Source: Escherichia coli (lineage in GTDB: Bacteria; Pseudomonadota; Gammaproteobacteria; Enterobacterales; Enterobacteriaceae). From it: 64,000 nucleotides of DNA. The stretch lies in NCBI RefSeq assembly GCF_009931435.1, contig NZ_CP043415.1. One strand, given 5' to 3'. The notes beneath the pieces were generated by a model. The model ran no database searches, was not told where the DNA came from, and saw only the letters and a program-made list of their open reading frames with translations. The translations under genes were made by a program, and so were the position numbers. The stretch's first letter is position 1. Every line of letters starts with the position of its first letter. Positions 10,024 to 61,928 of this stretch are shown one piece after another.

Positions 10024-10758
10024 TCAGAGAATATTTGCGATTGATTTGGCCAGCTGGTCTTCGAGAACAGGCTTCGCCTCTTCAAATTTCAGGTTAACCT
10101 TGTTCGCATTTGAGACCACACGGGTCTGGTATTTATGCTGGTTACCTGTTTCTGTACTGGTCTGAATTTTCGCACCTGATGTGCCCTGACGCAGGGCGGC
10201 AACATTATCCGTTGTCACCGTTGCCTTAGTACGCTCTGCAATCTGCACATCCGTGATCATGGTATAGTTCACATCTTCCACCATCGCATCTGCAGCCATA
10301 CCCACCAGACCGGCAGCAAGGCCCACACCGAGTGTGGCACCGGCAGAATTGGAATTATATCCGGTGATACCGGCACCTAACGCTGCACCAACTGCTGCGC
10401 CTTCATAACCACGGTTCAGCCATCCCTGAGACTCCCGCAGATCCATCTTATCGGCCTTCAGCACATTCGCCTGAATCCAGTAGTAGGCTTTATCCGGAGA
10501 AGTCACCACCTGATACCCTTTTGCTTTCACAGCATCAGCAATTTTGCCCTGCAGCCCACTCATGTCTTTATCAGACGTGTTTTTGATCTGCAGAAATACC
10601 GTGCGTTCGCTGGCGGGTTCAAGCCAGATGGTCTCACTCATCTGAGTCTTCACCTCAAGGTTACGCTTCTTGATTGCTGTGCTCATCGCACCACACCCTG
10701 AAAGGGCCAGAGTGGAACTGACCAGTGCAACCATCATTAGTTTTTTTGTTTTCATCAT
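10024..10758 (-). CDS. traT: TraT surface-exclusion outer-membrane lipoprotein
   Basis: 244 aa; lipobox LALSGC; sequence matches TraT as remembered. Confidence 0.95.
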
Positions 10759-10779
10759 ATATTTACTCTCTAATATCTT

Positions 10780-11301
10780 TTATTTTACTCTTGATAACTT
10801 CTTGTTTTTGACGTAACTATTGATTGCATCAATAACACCAACAAATTGATATCTACCGATATCTAATTGAATCAAGAACGCCATAATAACCGTCACTAAA
10901 ATTGCGCCAAAACCGTATATAATCCCTCCACCTAAAAAAGACCATAAAAATATAACCCCCATATACACAATGAAATACACTTTAAGTTTTGATGATATAA
11001 CCCTCATTACGGATGATGTCTTTAGGAATTCTTCCGGCAGAGAGAAATATAACATTCTAATCCTTGCCACAATAAACAGAATAATAAGTCCAAGCCATCC
11101 TCCGGCTAACACAGCAGTGAGTGTTTCACTTGTCTTTTGTGTTATTAGAAATGACATTAGCAAGGGACAAAAAATCATCCACCCCATGATGATAAGCCCG
11201 GGTTTTAATCCCTGCCATAGTGACGGAATTCTAATATCTCCTGAGTCAATATGTTTCTTTAAAACTTCCAACTCACTACTGATAATTTGTTGTGTAATCA
11301 T
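10780..11301 (-). CDS. traS: TraS entry-exclusion inner-membrane protein
   Basis: 173 aa hydrophobic ORF between traG and traT; assignment by position. Confidence 0.6.
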   Translation of the reverse strand: MITQQIISSELEVLKKHIDSGDIRIPSLWQGLKPGLIIMGWMIFCPLLMSFLITQKTSETLTAVLAGGWLGLIILFIVARIRMLYFSLPEEFLKTSSVMRVISSKLKVYFIVYMGVIFLWSFLGGGIIYGFGAILVTVIMAFLIQLDIGRYQFVGVIDAINSYVKNKKLSRVK

Positions 11302-31455: not shown

Positions 31456-31671
31456 TTATATATCGTCTATGCTTTCAGCTTCCTCCTTTACTAAAGATGC
31501 ATTATAAAAGTCTGGAAAACGATTGAGATGATCTTTTAGTCTAATGAACACCTCATTAGTTTTTGTTCTTCCGCTACGATCTCTAGCTGCTAAAAGTTTC
31601 TGATTGGTTGTCTCATCCAGTATTAATAAGACTTTGTTACCCGGTGCGGCTCTGGTTCTCCCTCTGCTCAC
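31456..31671 (-). CDS. traY: TraY (short R100-like form, RHH), GTG start
   Basis: 71 aa basic ORF between traJ and traA; GTG start preceded by GGAGGA. Confidence 0.7.
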   Translation of the reverse strand: MSRGRTRAAPGNKVLLILDETTNQKLLAARDRSGRTKTNEVFIRLKDHLNRFPDFYNASLVKEEAESIDDI

Positions 31672-31806
31672 GTTTCCTCCGCATAATTACTTGAGATAAT
31701 AAAATATAATCATATAAATCATCTTTAATGAAAACAAAAATAGAGTAAATTATATTAACAAAAACGGGAACCAATGGTTCCCGCAAAGTAACAATAAGTT
31801 AACAGC

Positions 31807-32454
31807 CTATCTTCCCAATATTTCTTTTACTTTAGCATATAAAGGAAGTATCTTTTCCGTTCTAATCATTTCATCCAACCAGAGATCTCTAGAACTAAAT
31901 CCATGTCGTTTAAATAATTTCATGGTTTTCTTCTTTGATTTAGACACAGTGATGTTCATCTTTGCTGATGAATAATGATGGCTAAACCCTATCAGATATG
32001 GCTCAATGCCTACATATTCATCAGATAGTACAATTAATTCATTGGTGTATTTAGACACAACAAACGATGACAGATTATCATTTGCTACCCAAATAAATCT
32101 CCAGATAAAGAAATAGCCGCATGGTGTGATAACACTTTCTATGATCACACTCCATAACATATTATTAAGTAATATGTCATTATTACAATTTACACCATAA
32201 ACTGAAGAGCATGATTCAATCTCTGCTCTGGATAACTGTAATTTACATTCCAACGTTAAACTATCAAACCATTCATCACATGAATTAAATGACGATCTGA
32301 TAAGTTTTTCAAAGCGGTTATTTTCCTGAATAAAAGAACCATCCTCGAAGCGGACACATACTGGATATTTTAAAAACGAAATAGCCTCTCCAAGACTATG
32401 AGGGAAATGCAATTGACTGATGAGTGCTCTTTCTCTACGATCCATCGCACACAT
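31807..32454 (-). CDS. traJ: TraJ transfer activator (non-F allele); track ORF extends to 32532 but ATG at 32454 with RBS at 32461-32466 is the likely start
   Basis: Position between traM and traY; start lies under the finP stem-loop I complement. Confidence 0.7.
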
Positions 32455-32644: not shown

Positions 32645-33028
32645 TTATTCATCATCATTTTTTGGAAAGAACCTTTCCATCTCAACCGACACCTTCTCTC
32701 TGATATCTTCAACCATATTGGCATATTCAAACTTCGGTTTTCCGGAAACATGAGGGCTAAGAGACTCAATACCTAAAATCTTTGCCACCGTTGACTGCGT
32801 TTTTACAACACACTCAAGAAGAAGTTTATTAAACTCTGCCTGATTAAACGCTGATTCTTTTCGTTCCATCTGCGCTTCATAAACTCGCAATCCTAACTCA
32901 AGCAACATAGAGGCAATACTTGAATAACTAACATCTTTCTCTTTTGCTCCCTCTGCTCGCCTTTGCACAGCAATAGCATTTATTTTTTCAGACACATGGT
33001 CATTAACATAAACCTGAATTTTGGCCAT
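32645..33028 (-). CDS. traM: TraM relaxosome accessory protein
   Basis: 127 aa MAKIQVYVNDHVSEKINAIAVQRR...; adjacent to oriT. Confidence 0.93.
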   Translation of the reverse strand: MAKIQVYVNDHVSEKINAIAVQRRAEGAKEKDVSYSSIASMLLELGLRVYEAQMERKESAFNQAEFNKLLLECVVKTQSTVAKILGIESLSPHVSGKPKFEYANMVEDIREKVSVEMERFFPKNDDE

Positions 33029-47413: not shown

Positions 47414-47839
47414 TCAGTCCAGTGCCGCGTAAATCGCGTTACATTCGGGGTGAAATTCGATGTGGCTCCACAACTGCGCATCGCGCATCCGGTAAAGCTG
47501 GGTCAGTCCTGCATCCCCACTGTCGTGGTACAGCCACAACTGGCGGTTAATCACAAGGGAAGTCAGAATGATGCCTGCGGCATCGGCGCTGACCGTGCGG
47601 TCAAACCAGTTTTCACCGTTGACCAGATGAAAACGGTCGCCATCCGGCATCATGTAACCGCCACCGTCCGGCAGGCGGATGAAGTGCCAGAATCCGCCTT
47701 CATATTCCGGCATCATTTTTTTCGCCAGCGCGTATACAGACGCTTCGGCATACAGAAAATCCAGGCCAAACAGGTAAGGCAGAAAAGACAGACGGTCGCA
47801 CTCTTCAACGTTCAGAGTGACAGGTTTCGCATACTGCAT
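47414..47839 (-). CDS. ArdB/KlcA-family antirestriction protein (candidate)
   Basis: 141 aa; [20 protein letters not shown] resembles the KlcA/ArdB family as remembered. Confidence 0.65.
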
Positions 47840-48220
47840 GATGTTTTCCTCCGTTGTTCACATATTCCGCGACACCGGGCGGTGCCGTGCCTCCATAAAA
47901 GCCGGGCGATAAGGCGGGGATGCACAGGGCGCAAGGGAAGCCGCAGCCTGACGCACACGGCTGACGGGAGTTGGAGGGTGAGACAGCGAAATCTGAGCGG
48001 GTGAACGACCGGAAAATCACGGCAGACGGGAAGGAGGGACCGGGTGACCGCAGCGGCGAAGCGTACCCTTGCATCCCTGCCAGCCCGGCTAAGATGGAGG
48101 CACGGCACAGCCCGCACACGACACGGCGGCCACATAACTGAAAATCCACAAGGCCATGCCCCGCATGGCTGGGTAAAGCGGAGCCGCCGGCGACTTCCTT
48201 TGTGCTCTGTCCGGGGACCG

Positions 48221-48248
48221 GCAGGAAAAAGGCGGGGATTTCCCCGCC
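48221..48248 (-). terminator. Rho-independent terminator after the 256-aa gene
   Basis: Minus strand GGCGGGGAAATCCCCGCC followed by TTTTT. Confidence 0.5.
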
Positions 48249-48252
48249 ATCA

Positions 48253-49023
48253 TCAGCCCCTGATTTTTGCCAGGGCATCCGCCATGCTGCGGATTTCATC
48301 CCGTGCCTCCAGAACAACCTCCCGCAGAATATCCCGGTCAAACCAGCGACGGGACGGTTCATCCGGTATACGCAGCACATCACAGACCAGACCACTGGCC
48401 AGGATATGCTCCACACACTCACAGACCAGGTACATTTCCACAGAGGAAAAACGTGCGCCACGGTTCAGAATGGCATCGAGCACCACGGGCAGATTTTCGT
48501 CATCTTCATCAAGCCAGCAGGGGTAATCGCTTTCCTTCACAACCAGACGAAAGCGGCGCGTCTGGCGGGTCAGCAACGTCTGACCGGTGGTGGTCAGCGC
48601 CGCCCGGATACGCCGCGCATCGTCTGCCACCTGGTAACAGATGCTTCGTACTGCATTGCGCACCGCATCAAGAACTGCCCTGATTTCGTCTTCGGTCAGC
48701 CATTCACCGGCATACGGAAAAGACACCTGTGTTCCGTCTGCCGGAAGTACCGGCAGCGACTGCCACTGACTGCCGGACAGAACAAGTTCCGCCCCGGTTC
48801 CGGTCAGTTTCTGAATGGCGGAGGCCAGGTGCGGCGGCAGTACGCCATCGTGGCGGTTAACGAGTAACGTCGCCAGCCGGGGCGCATCCAGCCGCACGTA
48901 AATGCTGATCCAGCCCGGATACTTCAGGTTACGCTGGTCAACATCCGTCTCTTCCGGCCAGCCCTGCGCCAGCAGCAGGTCGCGGGCATGACGACAAATC
49001 AGTGCATTCAGCGTTTTATTCAT
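48253..49023 (-). CDS. Hypothetical protein, 256 aa
   Basis: ORF track only; no recognised motif. Confidence 0.6.
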
Positions 49024-49067
49024 GATTCATGGTCTCCCTGAATCGCCGCCCGGAGGCGGCGATAACA

Positions 49068-49535
49068 TCAGTCGTTTTCGTGCGTGTTGTTTTTCAGCAG
49101 GATGCGGGCCTGATTAACCACCGCCTGACGGCGGGTAACGCATTCCGGGACGGCGAGGCCGTAATCACGGGCGGCCCATTCACGCTTCCACAATGCCTGT
49201 TCAGCGGTCTGAATCAGGGACGCCAGCAGTTCAGCAGGGACGGTCACCTGGCGGTTTTCGCTCACGTTGCTGATAATCTCCATCGCCGCGGCGGAAGAAA
49301 TACCGGACTCAATTCGCTGGTCTTCCGGGATGTCCTCCAGGCGCGCCAGGACGGTCCTGATTTCATGATCGGACAGGGAAATATCCATTCCGTCAGCGAG
49401 GGCCTGAATCTCTTCCGGGGACCAGACAACCAGCATCAACGGCGTGTCTCCCGGATACTTTGCTGCCAGCTCCCGGCATAGCGTTTCGCATGTTCCGTAC
49501 ATTCTCGTCTCCTTCTCAATCTTTAAAGCACGCAT
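49068..49535 (-). CDS. Hypothetical protein, 155 aa (paralogue of the 133-aa protein)
   Basis: Shared RQVTVPAELL motif. Confidence 0.6.
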   Translation of the reverse strand: MRALKIEKETRMYGTCETLCRELAAKYPGDTPLMLVVWSPEEIQALADGMDISLSDHEIRTVLARLEDIPEDQRIESGISSAAAMEIISNVSENRQVTVPAELLASLIQTAEQALWKREWAARDYGLAVPECVTRRQAVVNQARILLKNNTHEND

Positions 49536-49737
49536 CCAGTTCCAGAATTTCGGTATATGCCTCCATCAGGAGGCGGTTTGCGCGAAACAACGTCTGACGC
49601 ACCAGACGTTCCGGAAGGGTGTCAGCATTAAAGCTGTACCGCCGCTCCATCTCATTCATGGTTGTACGCAGGTCGCACATGGCATTGGCCACCTCCGCCA
49701 CTTCGGCGCGAAGTTTTTCGTGTCCGGCATAGTGCAT
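49516..49737 (-). CDS. Small hypothetical protein, 73 aa, starts 1 nt after the methyltransferase stop
   Basis: ORF track; compact operon spacing. Confidence 0.45.
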   Translation of the reverse strand: MHYAGHEKLRAEVAEVANAMCDLRTTMNEMERRYSFNADTLPERLVRQTLFRANRLLMEAYTEILELDACFKD

Positions 49738-50421
49738 TTACGCAGCCTCCGGCATAAACCAGTCATCATTCGCGGCCCCCTGCTGCATGGCCCGTTGCAC
49801 GGCGGAAAGGCGTTGCTGCCCGGCACGGTGATACTGCTCAAGCAGCTCGATACCGATATACCGGCGTCCGGACTGGAGGGCGGCGACGCAGGTTGAGCCG
49901 CTGCCTGCAAACGGGTCCAGCACAATTGCGTTCGGGTGTGTGAAGCTCTCAATCAGCGGTTGCAGGCTGGTAACGGGCTTTTCCGTCGGGTGATGGCGAT
50001 TGCCCGAATATTTCCAGCCCAGCACGTCCGGCAGCGGGTTTTGTGGCAGACGTGGACGGCCTTTTGCCAGGATGTAGGCGCATTCGTGGCGATAGCCCAC
50101 ATATGCGGCCTTCGATGTGTAGTTTTTGGTGAAGACCAGGTGACCAACCACGCTGAATCCCGCATTTTTCCAGGCGGCCACAAAGCGATCGACGCGGTTC
50201 CAGCCATAGAAGCTGACCATCAGCGCATCTTTTTTGAGTACGCGGTACATTTCATTACAGGCCGGTTGCAGCCATTCATCGGTTTTATCGCCAGCGATGG
50301 TGCGCCCGGAACGGTCACGGAAACCGACGAGGTACGGCGGGTCGGTGAGGATGAAATCAATGGCGTTATCAGGGATACGGGCTATAACATCGATGCAGTT
50401 ACCGAGGACAAAACGGGACAT
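49738..50421 (-). CDS. Orphan DNA methyltransferase, beta-class N6-adenine/N4-cytosine type
   Basis: 227 aa; DPPY near N-terminus, SAM motif LDPFAGSGSTCVAA near C-terminus; no adjacent endonuclease. Confidence 0.88.
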   Translation of the reverse strand: MSRFVLGNCIDVIARIPDNAIDFILTDPPYLVGFRDRSGRTIAGDKTDEWLQPACNEMYRVLKKDALMVSFYGWNRVDRFVAAWKNAGFSVVGHLVFTKNYTSKAAYVGYRHECAYILAKGRPRLPQNPLPDVLGWKYSGNRHHPTEKPVTSLQPLIESFTHPNAIVLDPFAGSGSTCVAALQSGRRYIGIELLEQYHRAGQQRLSAVQRAMQQGAANDDWFMPEAA

Positions 50422-51707: not shown

Positions 51708-54096
51708 ACGATCGGGTAGCAGTGATGCATTACTGCATCACCGCCCCCTAAGAACCGTACGTGCCAGTTTCCCGGCATACGGCTCAAGCCTTTCTAAGCC
51801 CACTCTCATGAGCCGGTTTCACTACATGTATACCTTTCGCATGAACAAGTGTGTGACACATCGGATGCAGCATAATCAAATTGGAGAGGCAGTTGCTCCC
51901 TCCATCGACTCGCCGTATGATGTGATGAACCTGCCACTGGGAATCAGATGTAATCCTCTCATCACATATGGGGCATCGGCCCCGCTGCTCAAACCAGATT
52001 TGAATGAGCTTTTTCCGTCCTTGCAGTTTGTGCCGCATTTTGTCTGCACAACGCTCCTCAAAGTACATCTCCCATTGAGGATCGAACGGATTAGCTGCAA
52101 TTTTAATCGGTTTAAACCGGTTGATAGGCGTATCGATTGCTTTCCTCAGATTTGCATACTGAGGCTTACCGTTGGCAAGGAGTTCTCCGGTAGCCGTGGA
52201 GAAAGACCAGTTTCGGGCACCTTGTTGATGGAAATATCTTTTCCGAATCCACTTCTTTCCCTTATTGGGATGACGCCGAACAGCCCAACGCCATAAAGCC
52301 AGCCAGATCTCATTGTCAACTTTGTTAAATGCGACCTTGGCCACAATGTGTTGATGGTAAGCCGCCCACCCTTTGATCATTGGGTTCAGCATGCGGATCA
52401 ACGTAAGCTGATCCATAGCTTTGTTGCCTTTGATTACAGCGCGTATTTTCTTTAAAAAGGAACTGACATTGGCTTTAGAGGGTTTGATCAGCATCTTACC
52501 GCCATATTTGCGAATGTTCTGTCCAAGAAAATCAAATCCTTCCTCGATATGTGTGATTTTCGTCTTTTCCGGAGAAAGCATTAATCCTCTTTCAGCCATA
52601 AACCGCCTGACGACGGGTAATACCTGAGACTCAAGAAGTTCTTTTGACTCTCCAGTGATAATAAAATCATCAGCATATCTCACATAGTTAACTTTCGGGT
52701 TAACCAATCGTCCCTTGACTGTTCTCTTTTTAAACTCCGAAGCAAGAAGCGCCTCCAGTCCATCCAGAGCAATGTTAGCCAGTACAGGAGAAATTATTCC
52801 CCCCTGAGGAGTTCCTGAATTTACAGGGAATAACTGCCCCTTTTCCCTGTAACCCGCTTTAAGCCACTTTGTCAGGATTTGTCTGTCTGTTGAGGTGTTA
52901 TCGATTAGCCATTGATGAGATATATTGTCAAAGCATCCCCGTATATCCCCCTCAAGCACCCATTCAGCGGATGTTTTCTGCGCAAGAACACAGAAGCACT
53001 GTGCTATCGCATCTGCAGTAGACCTTCCAGTCCGAAAGCCGAAGGATCTCTGGTCAGCAGTGACTTCAGCAACGGGCTCAAGAGCCAGCAAATACAACGC
53101 CTGCATCGCCCGATCCTTCATAGTGGGTATCCCAAGGGGACGAGACTTCCCATTTGACTTAGGTATATAAACCCGCTTAAGTGGCTGTGGTTTGTAACCA
53201 CGCCGTTTCAGCAGGTTAATAGCAAGAAATTTAACCTCCGGGGAAGACCATGTCTGACCATCAACCCCAGGAGTACGTTTCCCGCTATTCTCTGTAACTC
53301 GTCTGACAGCAACTGCTCTGCCACTAAACGAGTGAGTCAGTATCCATTGCAAGGATTTGACCTTGCCATGTTTACCTTCTCGTGTTGCCTTTACGATACG
53401 CGCTTGCAGTCTCCGCACTTCCCGATAGCACTGACGCCAGTTGATACTGTGCCAGGAGTCACCGTTAAGTAAGGACGCACCTTTACAGGTTGTAGCCTGC
53501 TCAGTCATCTGCTTTTCCTTTCTGGAAGATTACTCAAACTCTCTCGTAATGAAAGACCCAGTGGAAGTCTGCCCGCTTTCGCGTAGGGTAATGTTGCCGG
53601 GCTCAACCCTTATCCGGTCCATTACAGACTGGCATTCGCTTTTTCCACCTTCTTTTACCCGCACCGCCAACAGTATCCCTTGCGGTTAACCTGCCTCACG
53701 AGGCAGCGATACGGGCTTACCATGTTCCACCTGAATAACAACAGTAGGTTAGACTCTGCTCACAACACCGGTGGTTTATTGTCCGTGTACCCCTAGCAAA
53801 CAGAGGAGTAACCAACCACATACCTTTTGGTTCAAGCCTGTCAGCATCTTTGGCTTGTTCTGGTTAACGACGCTTCAGCAGTTCACATATGTTAGTCATG
53901 CTACCGAGCCTAGACCTCCTCCGCCTGATGCTGGCAGATTACATGTAACCTCACGGTTTCATGCGATCCGAAGATCCGGTTTCATTGTCCTGACAGCTTC
54001 ACACCCCACCGTTACCAGTGACGCATGTGTCAGTAGGCTACTGATGACGGAACATCAGGTTCCCTGACGGAATCGAACTCCGCTGGAACAATTATT
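51708..54096 (-). mobile_element. Group II intron (3' boundary approximate)
   Basis: 5' end GTGCGAC (complement of 54096-54090); domain V GAGCCGTATGCCGGGAAACTGGCACGTACGGTTC at 51752-51785; internal RT ORF. Confidence 0.8.
51784..53508 (-). CDS. Group II intron-encoded reverse transcriptase/maturase with C-terminal HNH endonuclease
   Basis: 574 aa; YADD motif; maturase region; HH...C..C HNH-like C-terminus. Confidence 0.95.
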   Translation of the reverse strand: MTEQATTCKGASLLNGDSWHSINWRQCYREVRRLQARIVKATREGKHGKVKSLQWILTHSFSGRAVAVRRVTENSGKRTPGVDGQTWSSPEVKFLAINLLKRRGYKPQPLKRVYIPKSNGKSRPLGIPTMKDRAMQALYLLALEPVAEVTADQRSFGFRTGRSTADAIAQCFCVLAQKTSAEWVLEGDIRGCFDNISHQWLIDNTSTDRQILTKWLKAGYREKGQLFPVNSGTPQGGIISPVLANIALDGLEALLASEFKKRTVKGRLVNPKVNYVRYADDFIITGESKELLESQVLPVVRRFMAERGLMLSPEKTKITHIEEGFDFLGQNIRKYGGKMLIKPSKANVSSFLKKIRAVIKGNKAMDQLTLIRMLNPMIKGWAAYHQHIVAKVAFNKVDNEIWLALWRWAVRRHPNKGKKWIRKRYFHQQGARNWSFSTATGELLANGKPQYANLRKAIDTPINRFKPIKIAANPFDPQWEMYFEERCADKMRHKLQGRKKLIQIWFEQRGRCPICDERITSDSQWQVHHIIRRVDGGSNCLSNLIMLHPMCHTLVHAKGIHVVKPAHESGLRKA

Positions 54097-54491
54097 CAGG
54101 CGACTTCATGTCGCACATTTGAGCACCAGTTTGGCATGGGAATTCTCCTCTCACATGCGGCCTCCACCAGGCCGTGCCGCACCTGTAACCGGGCGACCGC
54201 ATACGAATGCAGGTGCGGCCCCGAAGCCGCAGCGCGTGGAGGAGGAACGACGAAACGTGACCGGGTGAGGAGGCCGGCGACAGCGACACACTTGCATCGG
54301 ATGCAGCCCGGTTAACGTGCCGGCACGGCCTGGGTAACCAGGTATTTTGTCCACAGAACCGTGCACAAAATGCTGTGGATAAGCTGGACACAGCCGTCCA
54401 CAGCAGGCATACAGCCACACCCTCAGAGAATTGAGCGTTTTTTAGTCACAATAATGACATTTGACTGTGTGTGGATTCAGTTATTAGAATA

Positions 54492-54530: not shown

Positions 54531-54779
54531 ATGATCCGCATTGAAATTCTTTTCGACCGCCAGAGCACAAAAAACCTCAAATCAGGCACACTTCAGGCGC
54601 TACAGAATGAAATCGAACGACGTCTGAAACCACACTACCCGGAAATCTGGCTGCGTATAGACCAGGGCAGCGCCCCGTCTGTATCTGTCACAGGAGCCCG
54701 CAACGACAAGGATAAAGAACGTATCCTGTCTCTGCTGGAAGAAATCTGGCAGGACGACAGCTGGCTGCCTGCAGCATGA
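54531..54779 (+). CDS. impC: ImpC (DinI-family); track ORF starts at 54471
   Basis: MIRIEILFDRQS...KDKERILSLLEEIWQDDSWL resembles DinI. Confidence 0.8.
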   Translation: MIRIEILFDRQSTKNLKSGTLQALQNEIERRLKPHYPEIWLRIDQGSAPSVSVTGARNDKDKERILSLLEEIWQDDSWLPAA

Positions 54780-55195
54780 GTACCGTTTATCACCGTCCGG
54801 CTGACCCTTCAGGCAATGACAGTTACGTGCGACCGTTGTTTGCCGATCGTTGCCAGGCCGGTTTTCCTTCGCCTGCCACTGATTATGCTGAGCAGGAACT
54901 GGATCTGAACAGCTATTGCATCAGCAGACCTGCAGCCACCTTCTTTCTGCGCGCCAGCGGTGAATCGATGAACCAGGCTGGCGTGCAGAATGGTGATCTG
55001 CTGGTAGTGGACAGGGCCGAAAAACCACAACACGGGGACATCGTTATCGCTGAGATCGACGGGGAGTTCACCGTCAAACGACTGCTGTTGCGCCCACGCC
55101 CGGCACTGGAGCCGGTTTCAGACAGCCCGGAGTTCCGCACACTGTATCCGGAAAACATCTGTATTTTTGGTGTTGTCACTCACGTTGTTCATTGA
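54776..55195 (+). CDS. impA: ImpA (UmuD-like, S24 LexA-type peptidase)
   Basis: 139 aa; CQAGFPSPATDY, SGESM and K in FTVKRL align to UmuD. Confidence 0.88.
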   Translation: MSTVYHRPADPSGNDSYVRPLFADRCQAGFPSPATDYAEQELDLNSYCISRPAATFFLRASGESMNQAGVQNGDLLVVDRAEKPQHGDIVIAEIDGEFTVKRLLLRPRPALEPVSDSPEFRTLYPENICIFGVVTHVVH

Positions 55196-56152
55196 TTTGC
55201 GGGGGGTGAACCGTTGCATCTCTCCGGAGGTTTTTGGTCATCAGCTCAGGGAACAAGTAAAGAGCTGGACAGGACTCGCCATGGGGGTGGGCATTGCACC
55301 TACAAAAACGCTGGCCAAAAGTGCACAGTGGGCAACAAAGCAATGGCCACAGTTTTCCGGTGTGGTCGCGCTGACGGCAGAAAACCGTAATCGGACCTTC
55401 AAGTTACTGGGGCAGCAGCCTGTTGGTGAAGTCTGGGGAGTAGGACGCAGACTGACGGAAAAGCTGAATGCGCAGGGTATTAACACAGCGCAGCAGCTGG
55501 CGCAGGCTAACACGGCATTCATCCGGAAAAACTTCAGCGTCATTCTTGAGCATACAGTACGCGAACTCAACGGCGAGTCCTGCATATCTCCGGAAGAAGC
55601 CCCACCGGCAAAACAGCAGATTGTCTGTAGCCGCAGTTTTGGTGAACGAATCACAGACAAAGATGCCATGCACCAGGCTGTTGTTCAGTATGCAGAGCGG
55701 GCCGCAGAGAAACTACGTGGGGAGCGTCAGTATTGCCGGCAGGTGGCGACATTTATACGAACGTCACCCTTTGCAGTGAAAGCCCCTGTTACAGCAATTC
55801 CGCTGTGGAAAAGCTTCCATTGCCTACACAGGACAGCCGGGACATTATTGCCGCAGCATGCAGAGCGTTAAACCATGTCTGGCGTGAAGGGTACCGCTAT
55901 ATGAAGGCAGGAGTCATGCTGGCTGATTTCACACCATCGGGTATAGCGCAGCCGGGATTATTTGATGAAATCCAGCCCCATAAAAACAGCGAAAAGTTAA
56001 TGAAAACACTCGATGAACTGAACCAGTCGGGAAAAGGGAAAGTGTGGTTTGCGGGGCGAGGAACCGCCCCTGAATGGCAAATGAAACGGGAAATGTTGAG
56101 TCAGTGTTATACAACTAAATGGCGAGATATTCCCCTGGCCAGGCTGGGTTAG
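55167..56152 (+). pseudogene. impB: impB (UmuC-like) remnant: 5' ~100 codons absent, plus a frameshift near 55780
   Basis: Track ORFs 55167-55871 and 55733-56152 together align to UmuC from about residue 100 onward; no N-terminal catalytic region between impA and this point. Confidence 0.75.
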
Positions 56153-56153
56153 T

Positions 56154-56570
56154 TCAGTCATCTCCGAACATATTTTCAGCGTTTCTTCTGGTCTGGTCTT
56201 CACCGTCATTTCTCGACAGACTCTGCTCTGTAAGAGGAGTACTGCAATCCACAGACGTATGGAGACCAGATTGTTTTTCCAGTAATTCAAGCAATTTCTT
56301 TTCAACCGAAAAAGCACCTGGTATTACGCTGGAAATCACCTTATTAATATCATCCAGAGTCGTATTTTCTGTCAGTAACTCCGATATCAGCAAAGGAAGA
56401 CGTTTATCTATAGCTGCAAACGCCGCACCAGTAACTAACATCGCGCGCATGAAACGTCCCCGCTCCTTCAGTTTTTCATTTGCAATGAGCTCATCTGCTA
56501 TCTTATCTCCTGTCCGTTCATCCGGGAAAAGTTCAAATGAGCAGCGTCTGGATTTATTTTCATCACTCAT
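56154..56570 (-). CDS. parR: ParR/StbB partition adaptor
   Basis: 138 aa directly downstream of parM. Confidence 0.7.
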   Translation of the reverse strand: MSDENKSRRCSFELFPDERTGDKIADELIANEKLKERGRFMRAMLVTGAAFAAIDKRLPLLISELLTENTTLDDINKVISSVIPGAFSVEKKLLELLEKQSGLHTSVDCSTPLTEQSLSRNDGEDQTRRNAENMFGDD

Positions 56571-57543
56571 TAGTCACACCACCTTTCATTTTTATCATTC
56601 CCATGACTAAATCAAACTGCGGGGATGAGCTCAGATAAAAGCGCTCATCAGGAACCTTAGTCAGGTTCTTCACAGCCTCGGCCACAATTTCAGCCCCACC
56701 ACCAACACACATTACATGTGTATAGTCGGTGAAACGGCTGATGACATCATTAACTCGTTTAATAAGCAACTTCTGCCGTTCATTGATAACATTAATGATA
56801 GACTCACGCTGTTCAGCATTATAAATGCGACGGGAAAGGTAGTCAGGTTCATTACGGTGCACAATGATATTGTCAGCCTGGAATGAGCTCACTCTTGTAT
56901 TAGCATGTACAGCCATCTGTTCCTTAACCCCGGATGTAATCAGGGACACGCCGATATTCGGATCACACCAGGTTTTTGTAATCCCTGTCATTTTGCTACG
57001 AACATGCGACACATCAAGAGTTGTACCACCGAGATCTACGATCAAAAGGGATTCATCATCCTCAAGCCCCGCAAGAACACTGAAACCAGCGGGAATACTT
57101 TCAGGAAGAACGGAAACACTGCGAATAACAAATGCATCACTCCCCTGCACCCGTACTTCACGCATCACATTTTTTTTCTTTCTTTCAATGTTTTGCTTAT
57201 TTTTCTGATTGTTGGCGTCAAGGTATTCAGAGATCGGCAATGTGACGATGACATCAATAGGCTGCGCTTTCAGGCCGGTCTGCTGTAGCGCATGCTGAAT
57301 GGCCACAACATTCACATCACTGTACTGATAGCGTGTTTCAGTCGTTACGACAGCATCAGCACTTAATGGATCAAATGAAAACTTCTCGCCGTCGATCTCG
57401 TAATTAGCCGGGGCAGCATCATCCAGTAAACTAAAAGACCATTCCGGTTTAAAGCTGTTAGGGCTGATTAACGTTTTCACGTCACCATCCTCCAACCAGG
57501 CAAGTTTAATGTTGGTAGAACCATCATCAATAAAGATTTTCAT
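56563..57543 (-). CDS. parM: ParM/StbA actin-like segregation ATPase; start MKIFIDDGSTNIKL (track ORF extends to 57612)
   Basis: Strong similarity to R1 ParM as remembered (IDDGSTNIKL, DLGGTTLD, GGGAE motifs). Confidence 0.9.
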   Translation of the reverse strand: MKIFIDDGSTNIKLAWLEDGDVKTLISPNSFKPEWSFSLLDDAAPANYEIDGEKFSFDPLSADAVVTTETRYQYSDVNVVAIQHALQQTGLKAQPIDVIVTLPISEYLDANNQKNKQNIERKKKNVMREVRVQGSDAFVIRSVSVLPESIPAGFSVLAGLEDDESLLIVDLGGTTLDVSHVRSKMTGITKTWCDPNIGVSLITSGVKEQMAVHANTRVSSFQADNIIVHRNEPDYLSRRIYNAEQRESIINVINERQKLLIKRVNDVISRFTDYTHVMCVGGGAEIVAEAVKNLTKVPDERFYLSSSPQFDLVMGMIKMKGGVTNE

Positions 57544-57956
57544 AACCAGTCTCCGTTGCTCATAAACAAATAGAAAAAACAAATATGCTTCATACATGCA
57601 ATGTATATTCAATTATAATGGAAAGATGGTCTTTCTGAAAGGGTACAAGCAACATAAAAACACAATAAACTGCATGTATATCGCACGTACAACCTTAAGA
57701 CCAGAGAAAATCATAGATACAAAAAACATTATGAGTGTTATATGTGATACATAAATGCAATATAAAAATATCTTTGACATCATGGTTCAGGTTAAGGGAA
57801 GGGAATGAAATGGTGAAACTGAGAGGAAAGGAAAGCGGTGACGAATCATGTCACCATATACAGAAAGATGTCTAATGGGGACTCTTTAGGTACACTAAGA
57901 ATCCCCATAACGCATTTAAAAGACACACATTAGATACCCTTAAGGTATCCGATAGC

Positions 57957-58265
57957 TTATTGACCTATTGCGCCATCACGTTCAAGCTTCTCTCTTATAG
58001 CCTCAATAATATATGAGCTAAAATCCAGAGATGTTTTACTGGTCGCTTTAAGTTCCGCATGAGCTTCAAAATACGACAGCGGTATGGCCTTAAGATTCTT
58101 AGCCTTCGTCCTGGCGGCCACGGGACGACCTGAAACTTCCTCTGTACCTTCATTTGGCTGAGACGGGACTGTTGCTGTTACGGCAGAAGAAGAAGTTTGT
58201 AATCTGGCAGAATCCACCAGGTTTTTCAGTTTTTCAGCCTGTGCACTAAATTTCGCTTTGCTCAT
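57957..58265 (-). CDS. Small partition adaptor (ParG-like ribbon-helix-helix), candidate partner of the ParA ATPase
   Basis: 102 aa directly downstream of the ParA-like gene; C-terminal DFSSYIIEAIREKL. Confidence 0.5.
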   Translation of the reverse strand: MSKAKFSAQAEKLKNLVDSARLQTSSSAVTATVPSQPNEGTEEVSGRPVAARTKAKNLKAIPLSYFEAHAELKATSKTSLDFSSYIIEAIREKLERDGAIGQ

Positions 58266-58351
58266 GAGATAACCCAGGATGTTTGTTAGATACTCAAAAG
58301 ATATCCTTTAAAAACCCAAAGAATACTATATGGATACCCAATAGATACACT

Positions 58352-58996
58352 TTACTGTTTGTTATTTTCAATCAGATGATTGATTTCTTCGATCAGGGCA
58401 ATAACTTCCTTACCTCCTGCCGAATAGCGCCCATGAACAGACTCAGTGATTCCCATCCCAGTCTCAATGACATCCTCAAATTCTGCACGAGCAGAAATGC
58501 GGCTCTTCATCAGCTTCAGATGTTTGAACGATGGCAGGATTGCATCAAGCTTAGGGAATTTCTTCTTGTTAGGATTAACTTTACAGAGATACAGGTGAGC
58601 AGTTATATCAGTCCCCATGATAGAGCTGATTTCGTCCAGTACTCCATCAAAATGCATCAAACCAATACGCTCAGTCAGGGAGTCTTTTGAAGGGACAATA
58701 ACGCAGTCTGCAAAGGCAATCGCAGTACGGGTAAGATCTGAGTCAAATCCCCCACAGTCAATAAGTAACGTCTTATCGCTGTTCTTGTAGGGAGTCATAA
58801 TTTCGATTAACTCATCCACTGTTTTGGGTACTTTCACGGAAATTTCTTTTCCTTCAGGTCTCAGCCCCAGAATGATAGAAAGCCCGGTATGAGTATCCAG
58901 ATCAACTGTATCAGACTTCATTTCACCAACAATGTTTACGGATGAAGTTGTCTTACCCACACCACCTTTGGGATGCGTATTAGCAATAACAGGCAT
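58352..58996 (-). CDS. ParA-family (type Ib) partition ATPase; start MPVIANTHPKGGVGKTT (track ORF extends to 59074)
   Basis: Deviant Walker A KGGVGKTT. Confidence 0.85.
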   Translation of the reverse strand: MPVIANTHPKGGVGKTTSSVNIVGEMKSDTVDLDTHTGLSIILGLRPEGKEISVKVPKTVDELIEIMTPYKNSDKTLLIDCGGFDSDLTRTAIAFADCVIVPSKDSLTERIGLMHFDGVLDEISSIMGTDITAHLYLCKVNPNKKKFPKLDAILPSFKHLKLMKSRISARAEFEDVIETGMGITESVHGRYSAGGKEVIALIEEINHLIENNKQ

Positions 58997-59177
58997 AGTG
59001 TATCTCCAGAATCCACATGTAATACCCATAAAGCCCCCCCAAAGACACCTTTCGGATATCCAAGAGGTACTCAATAGATGTTTTTTTTACTCTATACCGG
59101 CCCGGCATGTCAACAGAATATGAAATACCGATAATATATCCATGAGATATCCGAAAGGGATTTAAAAAAGTCAGAGC

Positions 59178-59540
59178 TTAAGGAATTCTTTTGAGCATAG
59201 ACACCGCATCGGACTCAAGCATCGAAAACTGCACCCGGTGCCGTGCAGCCACATCCAGTGCAAATACCTTCGTGTAGACCTCCGTTGAACTGATGGACTT
59301 ATGCCCCATCAGGCTCTGCAGGACCTTCAGCGGTATACCGACATACAGCATGTGCATCGCATAGGAATGGCGGAACGTATGTGGCGTGACCGGGACAGAT
59401 AACGTCACACCGTCAGCGGTAACCGCTTCCCCAATCCAGGCCCTGACCGTTCTGTCCGTCACTTCCCAGATCCGCGCTTTCTCTCTCCTGCCTGTCCGTT
59501 TATTACGCCGTTCCATGGGGATTTTCAGTGTGGCCACCAT
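59178..59540 (-). pseudogene. Tyrosine recombinase (XerC/D-like) C-terminal catalytic fragment
   Basis: HTFRHSYAMHML (HxxR box), LMGHKSISSTEVYTKV (catalytic Tyr); in-frame TAG about 20 codons upstream of the ATG and no intact N-terminal domain. Confidence 0.6.
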
Positions 59541-59941
59541 CGTCTGCAGCTGGCTGACGTACCAAGAGTCGGAGAGCGGAACCAGCCGGTGAGTCTACTG
59601 CCCGGCTGGCGTTCTTCCTGCCGTCCTGGCTGCTTTTTCTGTCCGCTGCTTCAGAGTGACCAGCAGGTATTTTGGCAGTTCATCATGAACCATCGACATA
59701 TCCCTCAGTGAAGAGGAGGCTTATGGATGGTGTCGCTGCGGTAATTTCAGAACGTGCCATCATCCGTCCTGTATAGCGCATCTTCCTGCAGAAGGGTTTC
59801 AGCCGCCGCGGTAATAAATGCTCGTACCGTGCAGATAGCATTCTGCACACTCCCCGAACTGATATACACGGGTTCAAGAGATTCGGTAACTCCATCACGG
59901 TGTACCAGTGCGTTTCGGACCTTGATTACCCTCTCAAGTTC

Positions 59942-60526
59942 CTACAAAGGCCACTCATGCGGTGTTGCCAGCATCGTTGAAAAATACCGATCTATCACTT
60001 TGTGGCTCTGAAACGTTTTCTTCGCCACAAGAGACTGAGCTCGCCAGGTATAAACCTTCTCAGGAGTGGCTGTATCCGGTTCCTGCTCGACCCATTTGGA
60101 AGCACGTAATTTTCTTCTGTCTTCCTTATTAGCAATCAGCGAATCAGCTACCTGCAGAAATCGCTGCAAATGTGGAGGATGATTAAGAAGTGCCCTTGCG
60201 CTGTACATCAGAAAACTGTCCAACACACTCACACAATGAACGTAAGCCATTCGCTCCACAATTCCCGGTTGGTTGAACTGCATCAGGTTCTCTAACTCAA
60301 ACAATTCATCTTTTGCATCCTGCAGACGGTCAGGAATACTGGCAAGCGAAGCCTCAAAATATTGCTGCTCAGCCGCCTCTTCCATCCAGTCCTGAAACCA
60401 GCTGTATTCCTGTGCTGCCGCATCCCATTCAGGAGTTCCTTCCTCAGCATCCGTGTAATTTTCCGCAATCCATTCATCAGTGCGTTCTTCCTGAATTTCA
60501 AACAGCAGTTCTTTCATTTTTCCCAT
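59942..60526 (-). CDS. Hypothetical protein, 194 aa, acidic N-terminus
   Basis: ORF track only. Confidence 0.5.
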   Translation of the reverse strand: MGKMKELLFEIQEERTDEWIAENYTDAEEGTPEWDAAAQEYSWFQDWMEEAAEQQYFEASLASIPDRLQDAKDELFELENLMQFNQPGIVERMAYVHCVSVLDSFLMYSARALLNHPPHLQRFLQVADSLIANKEDRRKLRASKWVEQEPDTATPEKVYTWRAQSLVAKKTFQSHKVIDRYFSTMLATPHEWPL

Positions 60527-60714: not shown

Positions 60715-61041
60715 ATGACTAAAAATACTCGTTTTTCCCCCGAAGTCCGTCAACGCGCAGTTCGTATGGTTCTGGAAAGTCAGGGCGAATATGACTCACA
60801 GTGGGCGGCAATTTGTTCCATTGCCCCAAAGATTGGCTGTACGCCGGAGACTCTGCGTGTCTGGGTTCGCCAGCATGAGCGGGATACCGGGGGCGGTGAT
60901 GGTGGGCTCACCAGCGCTGAACGTCAGCGTCTGAAAGAGCTGGAACGTGAAAATCGTGAACTGCGCTGCAGTAACGATATCCTTCGCCAGGCTTCCGCTT
61001 ATTTTGCGAAGGCGGAGTTCGACCGCCTCTGGAAAAAATGA
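60715..61041 (+). CDS. IS629 OrfA
   Basis: 108 aa [26 protein letters not shown]... Confidence 0.95.
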
Positions 61042-61928
61042 TGCCACTGCTGGATAAGCTGCGTGAGCAGTACGGGGTCAGACCGGTATGCAGCGAACTG
61101 CATATTGCCCCGTCAACGTATTACCATTGTCAGCAACAGCGACATCATCCGGATAAACGCAGTGCCCGTGCGCAGCACGATGACTGGCTGAAGAAAGAGA
61201 TACAGCGCGTATACGATGAAAATCACCAGGTATACGGTGTGCGTAAAGTCTGGCGTCAGTTGTTACGGGAAGGTATCAGAGTGGCCAGATGCACTGTGGC
61301 ACGTCTCATGGCAGTTATGGGACTTGCCGGTGTTCTCCGGGGTAAAAAGGTCCGCACTACCGTCAGCCGGAAAGCCGTTGCCGCATGCGACCGCGTAAAC
61401 CGTCAGTTCGTGGCAGAACGTCCAGACCAGTTGTGGGTGGCTGATTTTACCTGGGTAAGCACATGGCAGGGCTTCGTTTATGTGGCGTTCATCATTGATG
61501 TGTTCGCCGGATACATCGTGGGATGGCAGGTCTCATCATCCATGGAAACAACATTCGTGCTGGATGCACTGGAGCAGGCGTTGTGGGCCCGTCGGCCGTC
61601 CGGCACAATCCATCACAGTGATAAAGGTTCTCAGTATGTATCGCTGGCCTACACGCAGCGGCTTAAGGAAGCCGGATTACTGGCATCAACAGGGAGTACT
61701 GGCGACTCGTATGACAACGCGATGGCGGAGAGCATCAATGGTCTTTACAAAGCGGAGGTAATACACCGTAAGAGCTGGAAAAACCGGACAGAAGTGGAAC
61801 TGGCCACACTAACGTGGGTGGACTGGTATAACAATCGACGATTGCTGGGAAGGCTGGGCCATACTCCTCCGGCAGAAGCAGAAAAAGCTTATTATGCTTC
61901 CATCGGAAACAATGATCTGGCAGCCTGA
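61038..61928 (+). CDS. IS629 OrfB (DDE transposase catalytic part)
   Basis: 296 aa integrase-core ORF overlapping orfA. Confidence 0.95.

Follow-up and report, generated by a model that had tools for sequence, protein, structure and literature searches.

Two co-directional plasmid-segregation cassettes, a ParM/ParR pair and a small ParA with a 102-aa partner, in an R64-type block of an Escherichia coli IncF plasmid

Two complete, co-directional plasmid-segregation cassettes, an actin-type ParM/ParR pair and a small ParA-type ATPase (YefA) with a partner of 102 amino acids (aa), YegA, lie within a 3.5-kb stretch of an Escherichia coli plasmid (contig NZ_CP043415.1, assembly GCF_009931435.1). 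The 64,000 nucleotides of this contig that were analysed are called the window, and positions are those of the window unless another replicon is named. On the minus strand, 56154-59165 holds four genes, all of them intact, and four stretches of non-coding repeats, in the transcription order yefA, an 86-bp spacer, yegA and, 413 bp from the yegA stop, parM and parR. The two cassettes are probably independent active-partition motors acting in cis, placed head to tail. The sequence itself shows that the genes are intact, to which families ParA, ParM and ParR belong, that the synteny of the two ParA-system genes is conserved, and that the repeat arrays exist, are periodic and keep their positions.

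The two cassettes and their repeat arrays

A sequence-only reading of the window had placed a ParM/ParR locus and a deviant-Walker-A ParA gene with a small partner on the minus strand within 3 kb, and this description holds, the four intact genes occupying 56154-58996. Neither system is truncated or devoid of centromere-type repeats; both cassettes are complete and both have arrays.

The gene parM (56563-57543, minus strand; 'parA' in R64) encodes an actin-like segregation ATPase of 326 aa. It matches Pfam StbA_N (1.5e-81) and the ParM C-terminal domain (2.6e-72), aligns with the R1 ParM structures of the Protein Data Bank (PDB) at about 1e-103 over residues 1-317, and shows the motifs DDGST, DLGGTTLD and GGGA. 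The gene parR/stbB (56154-56570, minus strand; 'parB' in R64) overlaps parM by 8 nt and encodes the ParM adaptor of 138 aa, with matches to Pfam Plasmid_stab_B (7.6e-28) and to pB171 ParR (PDB 2jd3; 2e-6, 30% identity). By these profile matches the family assignment of ParM and ParR is unambiguous.

A candidate parC together with the parM promoter was located at 57593-57761 (minus strand). Six ATTGCATGTA-like units, counted as 10-mers with up to 2 mismatches in both orientations, are found at 57761-57752, 57689-57680, 57678-57669, 57653-57644, 57613-57604 and 57602-57593, on both sides of the promoter TTCAGA-16-TATAAT (57639-57612). A count of six was reached by none of 100 shuffles (mean 3.3, maximum 5). 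The stretch has a lag-11 z of 3.0 and rank 5 for periodicity; here and below, array z-scores are lag autocorrelation or identity against shuffles, and ranks refer to all non-overlapping 90-bp windows of the 64 kb. The iterons around the promoter are a candidate parC with putative ParR sites. A ParM with both domains and the nucleotide motifs, an adjacent downstream ParR and candidate parC repeats at the sequence level make this a type II cassette. Two isolated GTATC cores, the motif of the ParA arrays, lie 30 nt apart within the candidate parC (57717-57755); they are not above chance and are compatible with cross-regulation of the pB171 kind. Between parC and the nearest ParA array lies a terminator-like hairpin (57836-57856, minus strand), which is a consensus match only, the number of terminator-like sites in the region being not above that of shuffles.

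The gene yefA (58352-58996, minus strand) encodes a small, divergent ParA ATPase of 214 aa with a deviant Walker A motif, within the range of about 200-220 aa of type Ib and without an N-terminal DNA-binding domain. The mechanical open reading frame (ORF) extends to 59074, the end given in the sequence-only reading; the annotated RefSeq start is the ATG at 58996 (MPVIANTHPKGGVGKTT), which has GGAG upstream and is common to all homologues. The Walker A motif KGGVGKTT contains the signature lysine, Walker B reads DCGG, and the Pfam matches are AAA_31, MipZ and CbiA. A family profile of seven members matches the 214-aa ParA 5u1g (1.3e-11) and ParF 4dzz (2.2e-11) over the full length.

The gene yegA (57957-58265, minus strand) encodes the candidate centromere-binding adaptor, in which a helix at the N-terminus is joined by a disordered linker to a conserved C-terminal domain resembling strand-helix-helix. 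The AlphaFold monomer has helix 4-19, disorder over 20-60, an extended segment, and helices 65-74 and 82-96, with a predicted local distance difference test (pLDDT) score of 75-84 over residues 61-100. The conserved stretch of YegA reads KNLKAIP..YF.AH..LK..KTSLDFSSYI.EA.REKLERDG. An exhaustive hidden Markov model (HMM) search of 1.84 billion cluster representatives returned only 77 clusters, all but a few of about 50-120 aa. Members of the family share a short N-terminal segment that ends in A-x-L, a linker that is variable and of low complexity, and the C-terminal domain K-x-[LI]-x-x-[IV]-P...F-[DE]-A-H..LK..GKT.L.F..YI.EA.REKLERDG. YegA, alone or as a 20- or 60-member profile, had no Pfam, NCBIfam or PDB match: PDB profile searches gave nothing significant, and when 20 and 60 family members were scanned against Pfam, nothing emerged beyond a weak, recurrent match to DUF3950 (best E-value 0.0088). 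Nor was anything significant obtained by hhalign against pB171 ParB, pESBL ParB and a ParD-type ribbon-helix-helix (RHH) antitoxin. The partner had been described as 'RHH-like'; the small partner gene is confirmed, and an RHH fold, which we infer, found no significant match in any sequence or fold search. In many plasmid records the Prokaryotic Genome Annotation Pipeline (PGAP) labels YegA 'molecular chaperone GroEL'. The protein has no similarity to GroEL, and on a product of 102 aa the label is plainly wrong and looks like a propagated mis-annotation.

Repeats of the ParA system were found at all three non-coding positions of its operon. The upstream array (58997-59165, minus strand), a candidate operator and centromere of the yefA operon, fills the 180 bp upstream of yefA with 11-bp units having GGATATC, GGTATT or GGTGTC cores, with a TTGACA -35 box (59113-59108) in their midst. 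The yefA promoter is flanked by the two arms of a perfect 13-bp inverted repeat, CCTTTCGGATATC (59158-59146 with 59060-59048). The lag-11 autocorrelation z is 5.2, and for 11/22-bp periodicity no 180-bp window of the 64 kb ranks higher. The spacer array (58266-58351, minus strand) occupies the 86 bp between yefA and yegA with about eight 11-bp units of a consensus near tGgGTATCtwt, which begin AGTGTATCTAT, TGGGTATCCAT and ATAGTATTCTT; its z is 3.5 at lag 11 and 4.2 at lag 22, rank 2. The downstream array (57860-57956, minus strand) opens with the near-palindrome GGATACCTTAAGGGTATC (57950-57933), followed by about eight degenerate 11-bp units in the same phase. The repeat search of 57613-57956 and 59075-59177, the two intervals that had been singled out for centromere repeats, thus gave iterated repeats above chance in both, and the array between yefA and yegA is a third. 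Short-repeat arrays flanking the operon, here three with 11-bp phasing (z 2.4-5.2), are a further type Ib feature.

In a model-free scan of the 64 kb for 11/22-bp periodicity, the three ParA arrays rank 2, 4 and 6 and the candidate parC ranks 5. All four are candidate centromeres at which binding is predicted from the sequence. Tandem Repeats Finder, run on 57500-59250, found no array and only an 8-bp duplication inside yegA, because the array units are too degenerate. A position weight matrix built from the array units and scanned over the window was dropped as circular; at a loose threshold it gave a false cluster at 841-960 in a coding ORF. Rank 1 of the scan is taken by 33216-33305, in the F-type traM/traJ/traY region with GATTC/GAATC motifs, presumably the oriT-proximal TraM-binding region and a natural positive control for the scan. 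Further high-ranking 11/22-bp periodic stretches are 10737-10826, 31714-31803 and 32839-32928; a repeat search of 10650-10950 and 31600-31900 gave no exact-seed families.

The ParA pair on other plasmids and among known partition systems

The homologues returned by tblastn searches with YegA are divergent (66% to about 47% identity), and each is encoded immediately after a homologous ParA. The gene order yefA-yegA, and with it the adaptor position of type Ib, is kept in seven loci, the window and six diverse plasmids. In a Klebsiella IncFII plasmid (L003) the pair adjoins a convergent umuC without ParMR alongside. On an IncI2 plasmid (L006) it stands beside repA and is the only par-like module there. 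The others are a Yersinia MOBF plasmid (L004), pKPC_CAV1392 (L005), a Klebsiella plasmid with a T-type mating-pair formation system (MPF_T; L007) and an Aeromonas plasmid (L008). No recombinase gene is adjacent in L004, L006, L007 and L008. The occurrence of the pair alone on other backbones points to a self-sufficient module; in turn, ParM relatives at 62-65% identity were found without the ParA pair.

The array layout is kept as well. The spacer array is 11/22-bp periodic in all six other loci (z 4.3-5.4), and in five of the six (L003-L007), as in the window, lag 11 or 22 is the top lag at each of the three non-coding positions. In the Aeromonas locus only the spacer is periodic, the upstream and downstream lag-11 z being 0.9 and -0.7. 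An array like the downstream one follows the small gene in L003, and since no ParMR adjoins it there, the downstream array is assigned to the ParA system and not to ParMR. The repeat sequence itself varies: TGTAT in Yersinia, GGAATCC/GGATTTC in pKPC_CAV1392 and the IncI2 plasmid, and TGTACA in L007 and L008. Such variation from plasmid to plasmid is as would be expected of specificity determinants, or of a centromere-binding protein co-evolving with its sites.

On balance, these data favour YefA-YegA as an experimentally uncharacterised type Ib family with an uncurated adaptor and a split centromere of three arrays phased at one helical turn, one of them in the spacer, a layout kept across IncI1, IncI2, Yersinia and Aeromonas plasmids with plasmid-specific repeats, and with ParA-ParMR cross-regulation as something that could occur. 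The parC of ParMR and the downstream array are about 100 bp apart in R64-type plasmids; by analogy with pB171, although by a different geometry, the two motors could cross-regulate each other. What this analysis adds is modest: it describes yefA-yegA as a type Ib family of its own, covered by no existing model, whose layout of three arrays is conserved.

A pB171-type plasmid, found via the ParR sequence of PDB 2jd3 (98.8% identity), was used as a stand-in for pB171. Its locus consists of resD, rightward; parB (91 aa, CopG family) and parA (214 aa), both leftward; and parM and parR, both rightward. The double par locus of pB171 has par1 (parMR) and par2 (parAB), with parC1 and parC2; its divergent arrangement with a shared central region is also described in the literature (PMC11950199). 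Both loci have type II and small-ParA type I cassettes side by side beside resD, a ParA of 214 aa, and repeat arrays upstream and downstream of the ParA operon. The difference from divergent pB171 to which the sequence-only reading drew attention is borne out, as the four genes of the window run in one direction and have separate, adjacent arrays that do not overlap; moreover, the window has an extra array between the ParA and adaptor genes. Identities between the two are 19% for ParA, 36% for ParM and 30% for ParR, and the small partners do not align. An orthologous pB171-type locus, divergent with a shared parC1, or a rearranged pB171, was rejected on these low identities and the co-directional order. 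Judged by the same alignments, the ParA pair is related to pB171 par2 only at the level of the ParA superfamily, and the locus is an independent, analogous pairing of type Ib and type II at the same place beside resD.

A functional precedent on I-complex plasmids is the ParABS system of pESBL, a functionally proven IncI1 type Ib system with a 100-aa ParB lacking a recognisable motif and with repeats on both sides of the operon (PMC7602700). The pESBL/pMS7163B system shares with the window pair a small ParA, a motif-less ParB of about 100 aa, short repeats upstream and downstream, and a position beside impCAB. It differs in its repeat, the octamer GATAACAA as against the GGTATC/GGATATC core of the window, in its overlapping par genes, which leave no spacer array, and in its orientation relative to impCAB. 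The window pair was rejected as the pESBL par locus, the ParA proteins being 24% identical and the ParB proteins without detectable similarity. The regions compared for pESBL, pMS7163B, R621a and R64 were L013, 794-1420 and 495-797, L014, 4052-4977, L015, 5918-6843, and L016, 45383-48225. Plasmids pESBL, pMS7163B and R621a have identical ParA and ParB accessions (WP_000587689.1 and WP_001245884.1), and R64 has yefA-yegA-parM-parR instead. This sharing appears to be at odds with the statement of a 2023 I-complex study that R64 parAB is the system of pESBL (PMC10286972); the study treats only the R64 'parAB', found in 48% of 460 I-complex plasmids.

With the delta/omega system of pSM19035 the pair shares a type Ib ATPase, a small adaptor (there with a disordered N-terminus that contacts the ATPase) and several promoter-overlapping arrays, the parS arrays of pSM19035 overlapping the promoters of both the ATPase and the adaptor genes (PMC3074150). 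That system is from a Gram-positive plasmid, has contiguous 7-bp heptads in place of 11-bp-spaced units, and shows no detected sequence similarity. The likeness to ParF/ParG/parH of TP228 comprises the full-length ParF profile match, a small adaptor and repeats upstream over the promoter, whereas YegA matches neither Pfam ParG nor any RHH model. Assignment of the pair as a ParFG homologue like that of pMET1 was rejected on sequence, the families being different (PMC2262945). For the type II cassette the relevant relative is R1 parMRC. Besides the structural matches given above, the ParM of an R1/R100-type plasmid is 52% identical, and the order parC-parM-parR and iterons of about 10-11 bp flanking the promoter are shared; the iteron sequence is another one, the six copies of the window stand in mixed orientation, and its ParR is of the StbB/pB171 type. 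Type I and type II systems occur together on one plasmid in pB171, pUTI89 and R27 (PMC9800825).

Origin and surroundings of the block

The window belongs to an E. coli IncFIA/FIB/FIC (ColV-type) plasmid with aerobactin genes, and over the par region it shows 100% identity to its RefSeq twin, NZ_CP065971.1. By blastn, positions 44709-50000 of the IncI1 prototype R64 (NC_005014) match the window at 97.1% identity over 55186-59664 and 99.6% over 54714-55185. The R64 stability block resD-yefA-yegA-parA-parB-impBAC (NC_005014, 44425-49938) reads resD, a ParA-family gene, a small gene, ParM and ParR, followed by convergent impB-impA-impC, and the same order and orientation are found in the window. 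For ParA, and likewise for ParR, R64 and the RefSeq twin have an identical protein accession. The IncI-gamma/K plasmid pHU590 is annotated with the R64 names yefA, yegA, parA and parB for the four genes; the R64 'parA' is parM and its 'parB' is parR/stbB. Near-identical sequence and the same gene order place the locus in the R64 yefA-yegA-parA-parB block, and the par region is, on this match, an IncI1 (R64-type) backbone block inherited whole and now carried by an IncF ColV-type plasmid.

At least 1,074 PLSDB plasmids contain 80% or more of 56000-59300, the small protein occurs at 90% identity or more in about 1,100 PLSDB plasmids, and this ParM variant in about 1,080 plasmids. The closeness of the three counts indicates that the two cassettes travel together as one unit. 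The tandem arrangement has long been sequenced and is very common; it is ordinary and no surprise for a plasmid specialist.

Both ends of the block are damaged in the window, resD being cut at 59664 and a 334-bp deletion lying at 55185/55186, and the four par genes are untouched. The truncated resD-like tyrosine recombinase gene (59178-59664, minus strand) keeps its C-terminal part, with an ORF from an internal Met at 59540-59178 that matches Pfam Phage_integrase (4.7e-14) and is 91% identical to residues 146-265 of the full 269-aa ResD. R64 homology stops at 59664, within the R64 integrase (resD) gene. Beyond it lie a 194-aa ORF (59942-60526, minus strand), which matched neither Pfam nor NCBIfam, and then an IS3-family element (60715-61928). 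At the other end, the deletion removes R64 positions 49195-49528, and with them the final codons of impA/umuD and about 300 nt at the start of impB/umuC. The umuC frame appears only as two fragments (55167-55871 and 55733-56152), and the gene table that PLSDB gives for the RefSeq twin, in which pseudogenes are not listed, does not contain it. Between a DUF1281 gene and impC lies a 2.4-kb insertion (51713-54116, boundaries by blastn) that is not present in pESBL and R621a. It encodes the reverse transcriptase/maturase of a group II intron (51784-53508, minus strand) and is probably a complete intron of this kind.

Proposed mechanism, alternatives and significance

In the proposed mechanism, dimers of YegA would bind cooperatively to units with GGTATC/GGATATC cores spaced one helical turn (11 bp) apart, and would cover one side of the DNA along the three arrays, which would both form the partition complex and repress the yefA operon. 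The conserved N-terminal segment of YegA would touch nucleoid-bound YefA-ATP and stimulate its ATPase, and plasmid copies would be spaced along the nucleoid by the ParA gradient mechanism. In the second system, ParR on the ATTGCATGTA-like iterons of parC would repress parM transcription and would cap ParM filaments, which would push sister plasmids apart. The binding partners, the autoregulation and the activity of both systems are, like the RHH fold of YegA, what we infer. Every element has a precedent: repeats on both sides of the operon and a motif-less adaptor in pESBL, promoter arrays in pSM19035, and dual systems in pB171, pUTI89 and R27.

Several points weigh against this interpretation. 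The NCBIfam model ParA_partition matches YefA at 1.6e-14 with a score of 53.9 against a cut-off of 180; falling under this equivalog cut-off marks YefA as a separate ParA subfamily. The -10 box of yefA is poor, and the promoter was not called by a consensus scan. Among the three ParA arrays, the downstream one has the weakest signal (lag-11 z of 2.4, rank 6). In the searchable literature no functional study of the yefA-yegA pair was found, and PMC4541600, citing the R64 genome report, places yefA beside resD under site-specific recombination; open-access papers name yefA in passing, once under 'site-specific recombination' and once under 'maintenance and stability'. Finally, where two systems are present, one may be redundant or silent.

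Of the alternatives, the one that survives best, although we regard it as unlikely, is that the 11-bp arrays serve chiefly as transcriptional operators, or are bent AT-rich DNA of promoters, with the true centromere in one array or elsewhere. The upstream array does overlap the promoter, the spacer array lies just before yegA, and in pSM19035 and pB171 the same kind of sites act as operators (PMC3074150; PMC7602700). In characterised type Ib systems, however, operator arrays are themselves the centromeres (PMC3074150; PMC7602700), and the downstream array of L003 has no gene to regulate, being followed by the convergent umuC.

It is improbable that both cassettes, while intact, are a redundant IncI1 remnant hitch-hiking on a plasmid whose IncF (FIA/FIB) partition functions do the work. 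The typing of the host plasmid as IncFIA/FIB/FIC, the decay of the surrounding IncI1 block (the truncated resD and the deletion across the impA/impB junction) and the finding that par deletion in the IncI1 plasmid pESBL caused no visible destabilisation (PMC7602700) speak for it. Yet the flanking genes are damaged and the four par genes and all arrays are kept, with ParA and ParR sequence-identical to R64. This preservation suggests maintenance, although the time since acquisition may simply be short.

Slightly less probable still is that only ParMR partitions and YefA-YegA has a stability role tied to ResD, in multimer resolution or local regulation, and is not a segregation motor: the pair does follow immediately on resD, both in R64 and in the window, and a recombinase gene is also close by in L003 and L005, but the four loci without an adjacent recombinase, the pair's standing as sole par-like module beside repA on IncI2, the full-length alignment of YefA to the partition ATPases ParF and 5u1g ParA, and repeats spaced at one turn that flank an operon of ParA and a small protein, the signature of type Ib par (PMC7602700; PMC3074150), argue against it, as does the fact that par loci, including the pB171-type locus beside resD, often adjoin resolvase genes without depending on them.

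Two motors in cis, the reading preferred here, would be of practical consequence. IncI1 plasmids, and F-type hybrids with IncI1 backbone blocks, are major carriers of extended-spectrum beta-lactamase (ESBL) and virulence genes; such plasmids rely on segregation systems to persist. A 2026 survey of partition systems in Nucleic Acids Research (NAR) used the ParB proteins of pB171 and pSM19035 as reference adaptors. Because YegA resembles none of the references, BLAST surveys of this kind likely score the locus as ParMR only, and the 2026 survey probably did not score the R64-type pair. Recognition of yefA-yegA as a probable second motor alters the prediction of incompatibility and stability for about 1,000 sequenced plasmids and corrects the widespread 'GroEL' mis-annotation. 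The locus reveals no new principle; it is a compact, testable model of two different segregation machines coexisting in cis.

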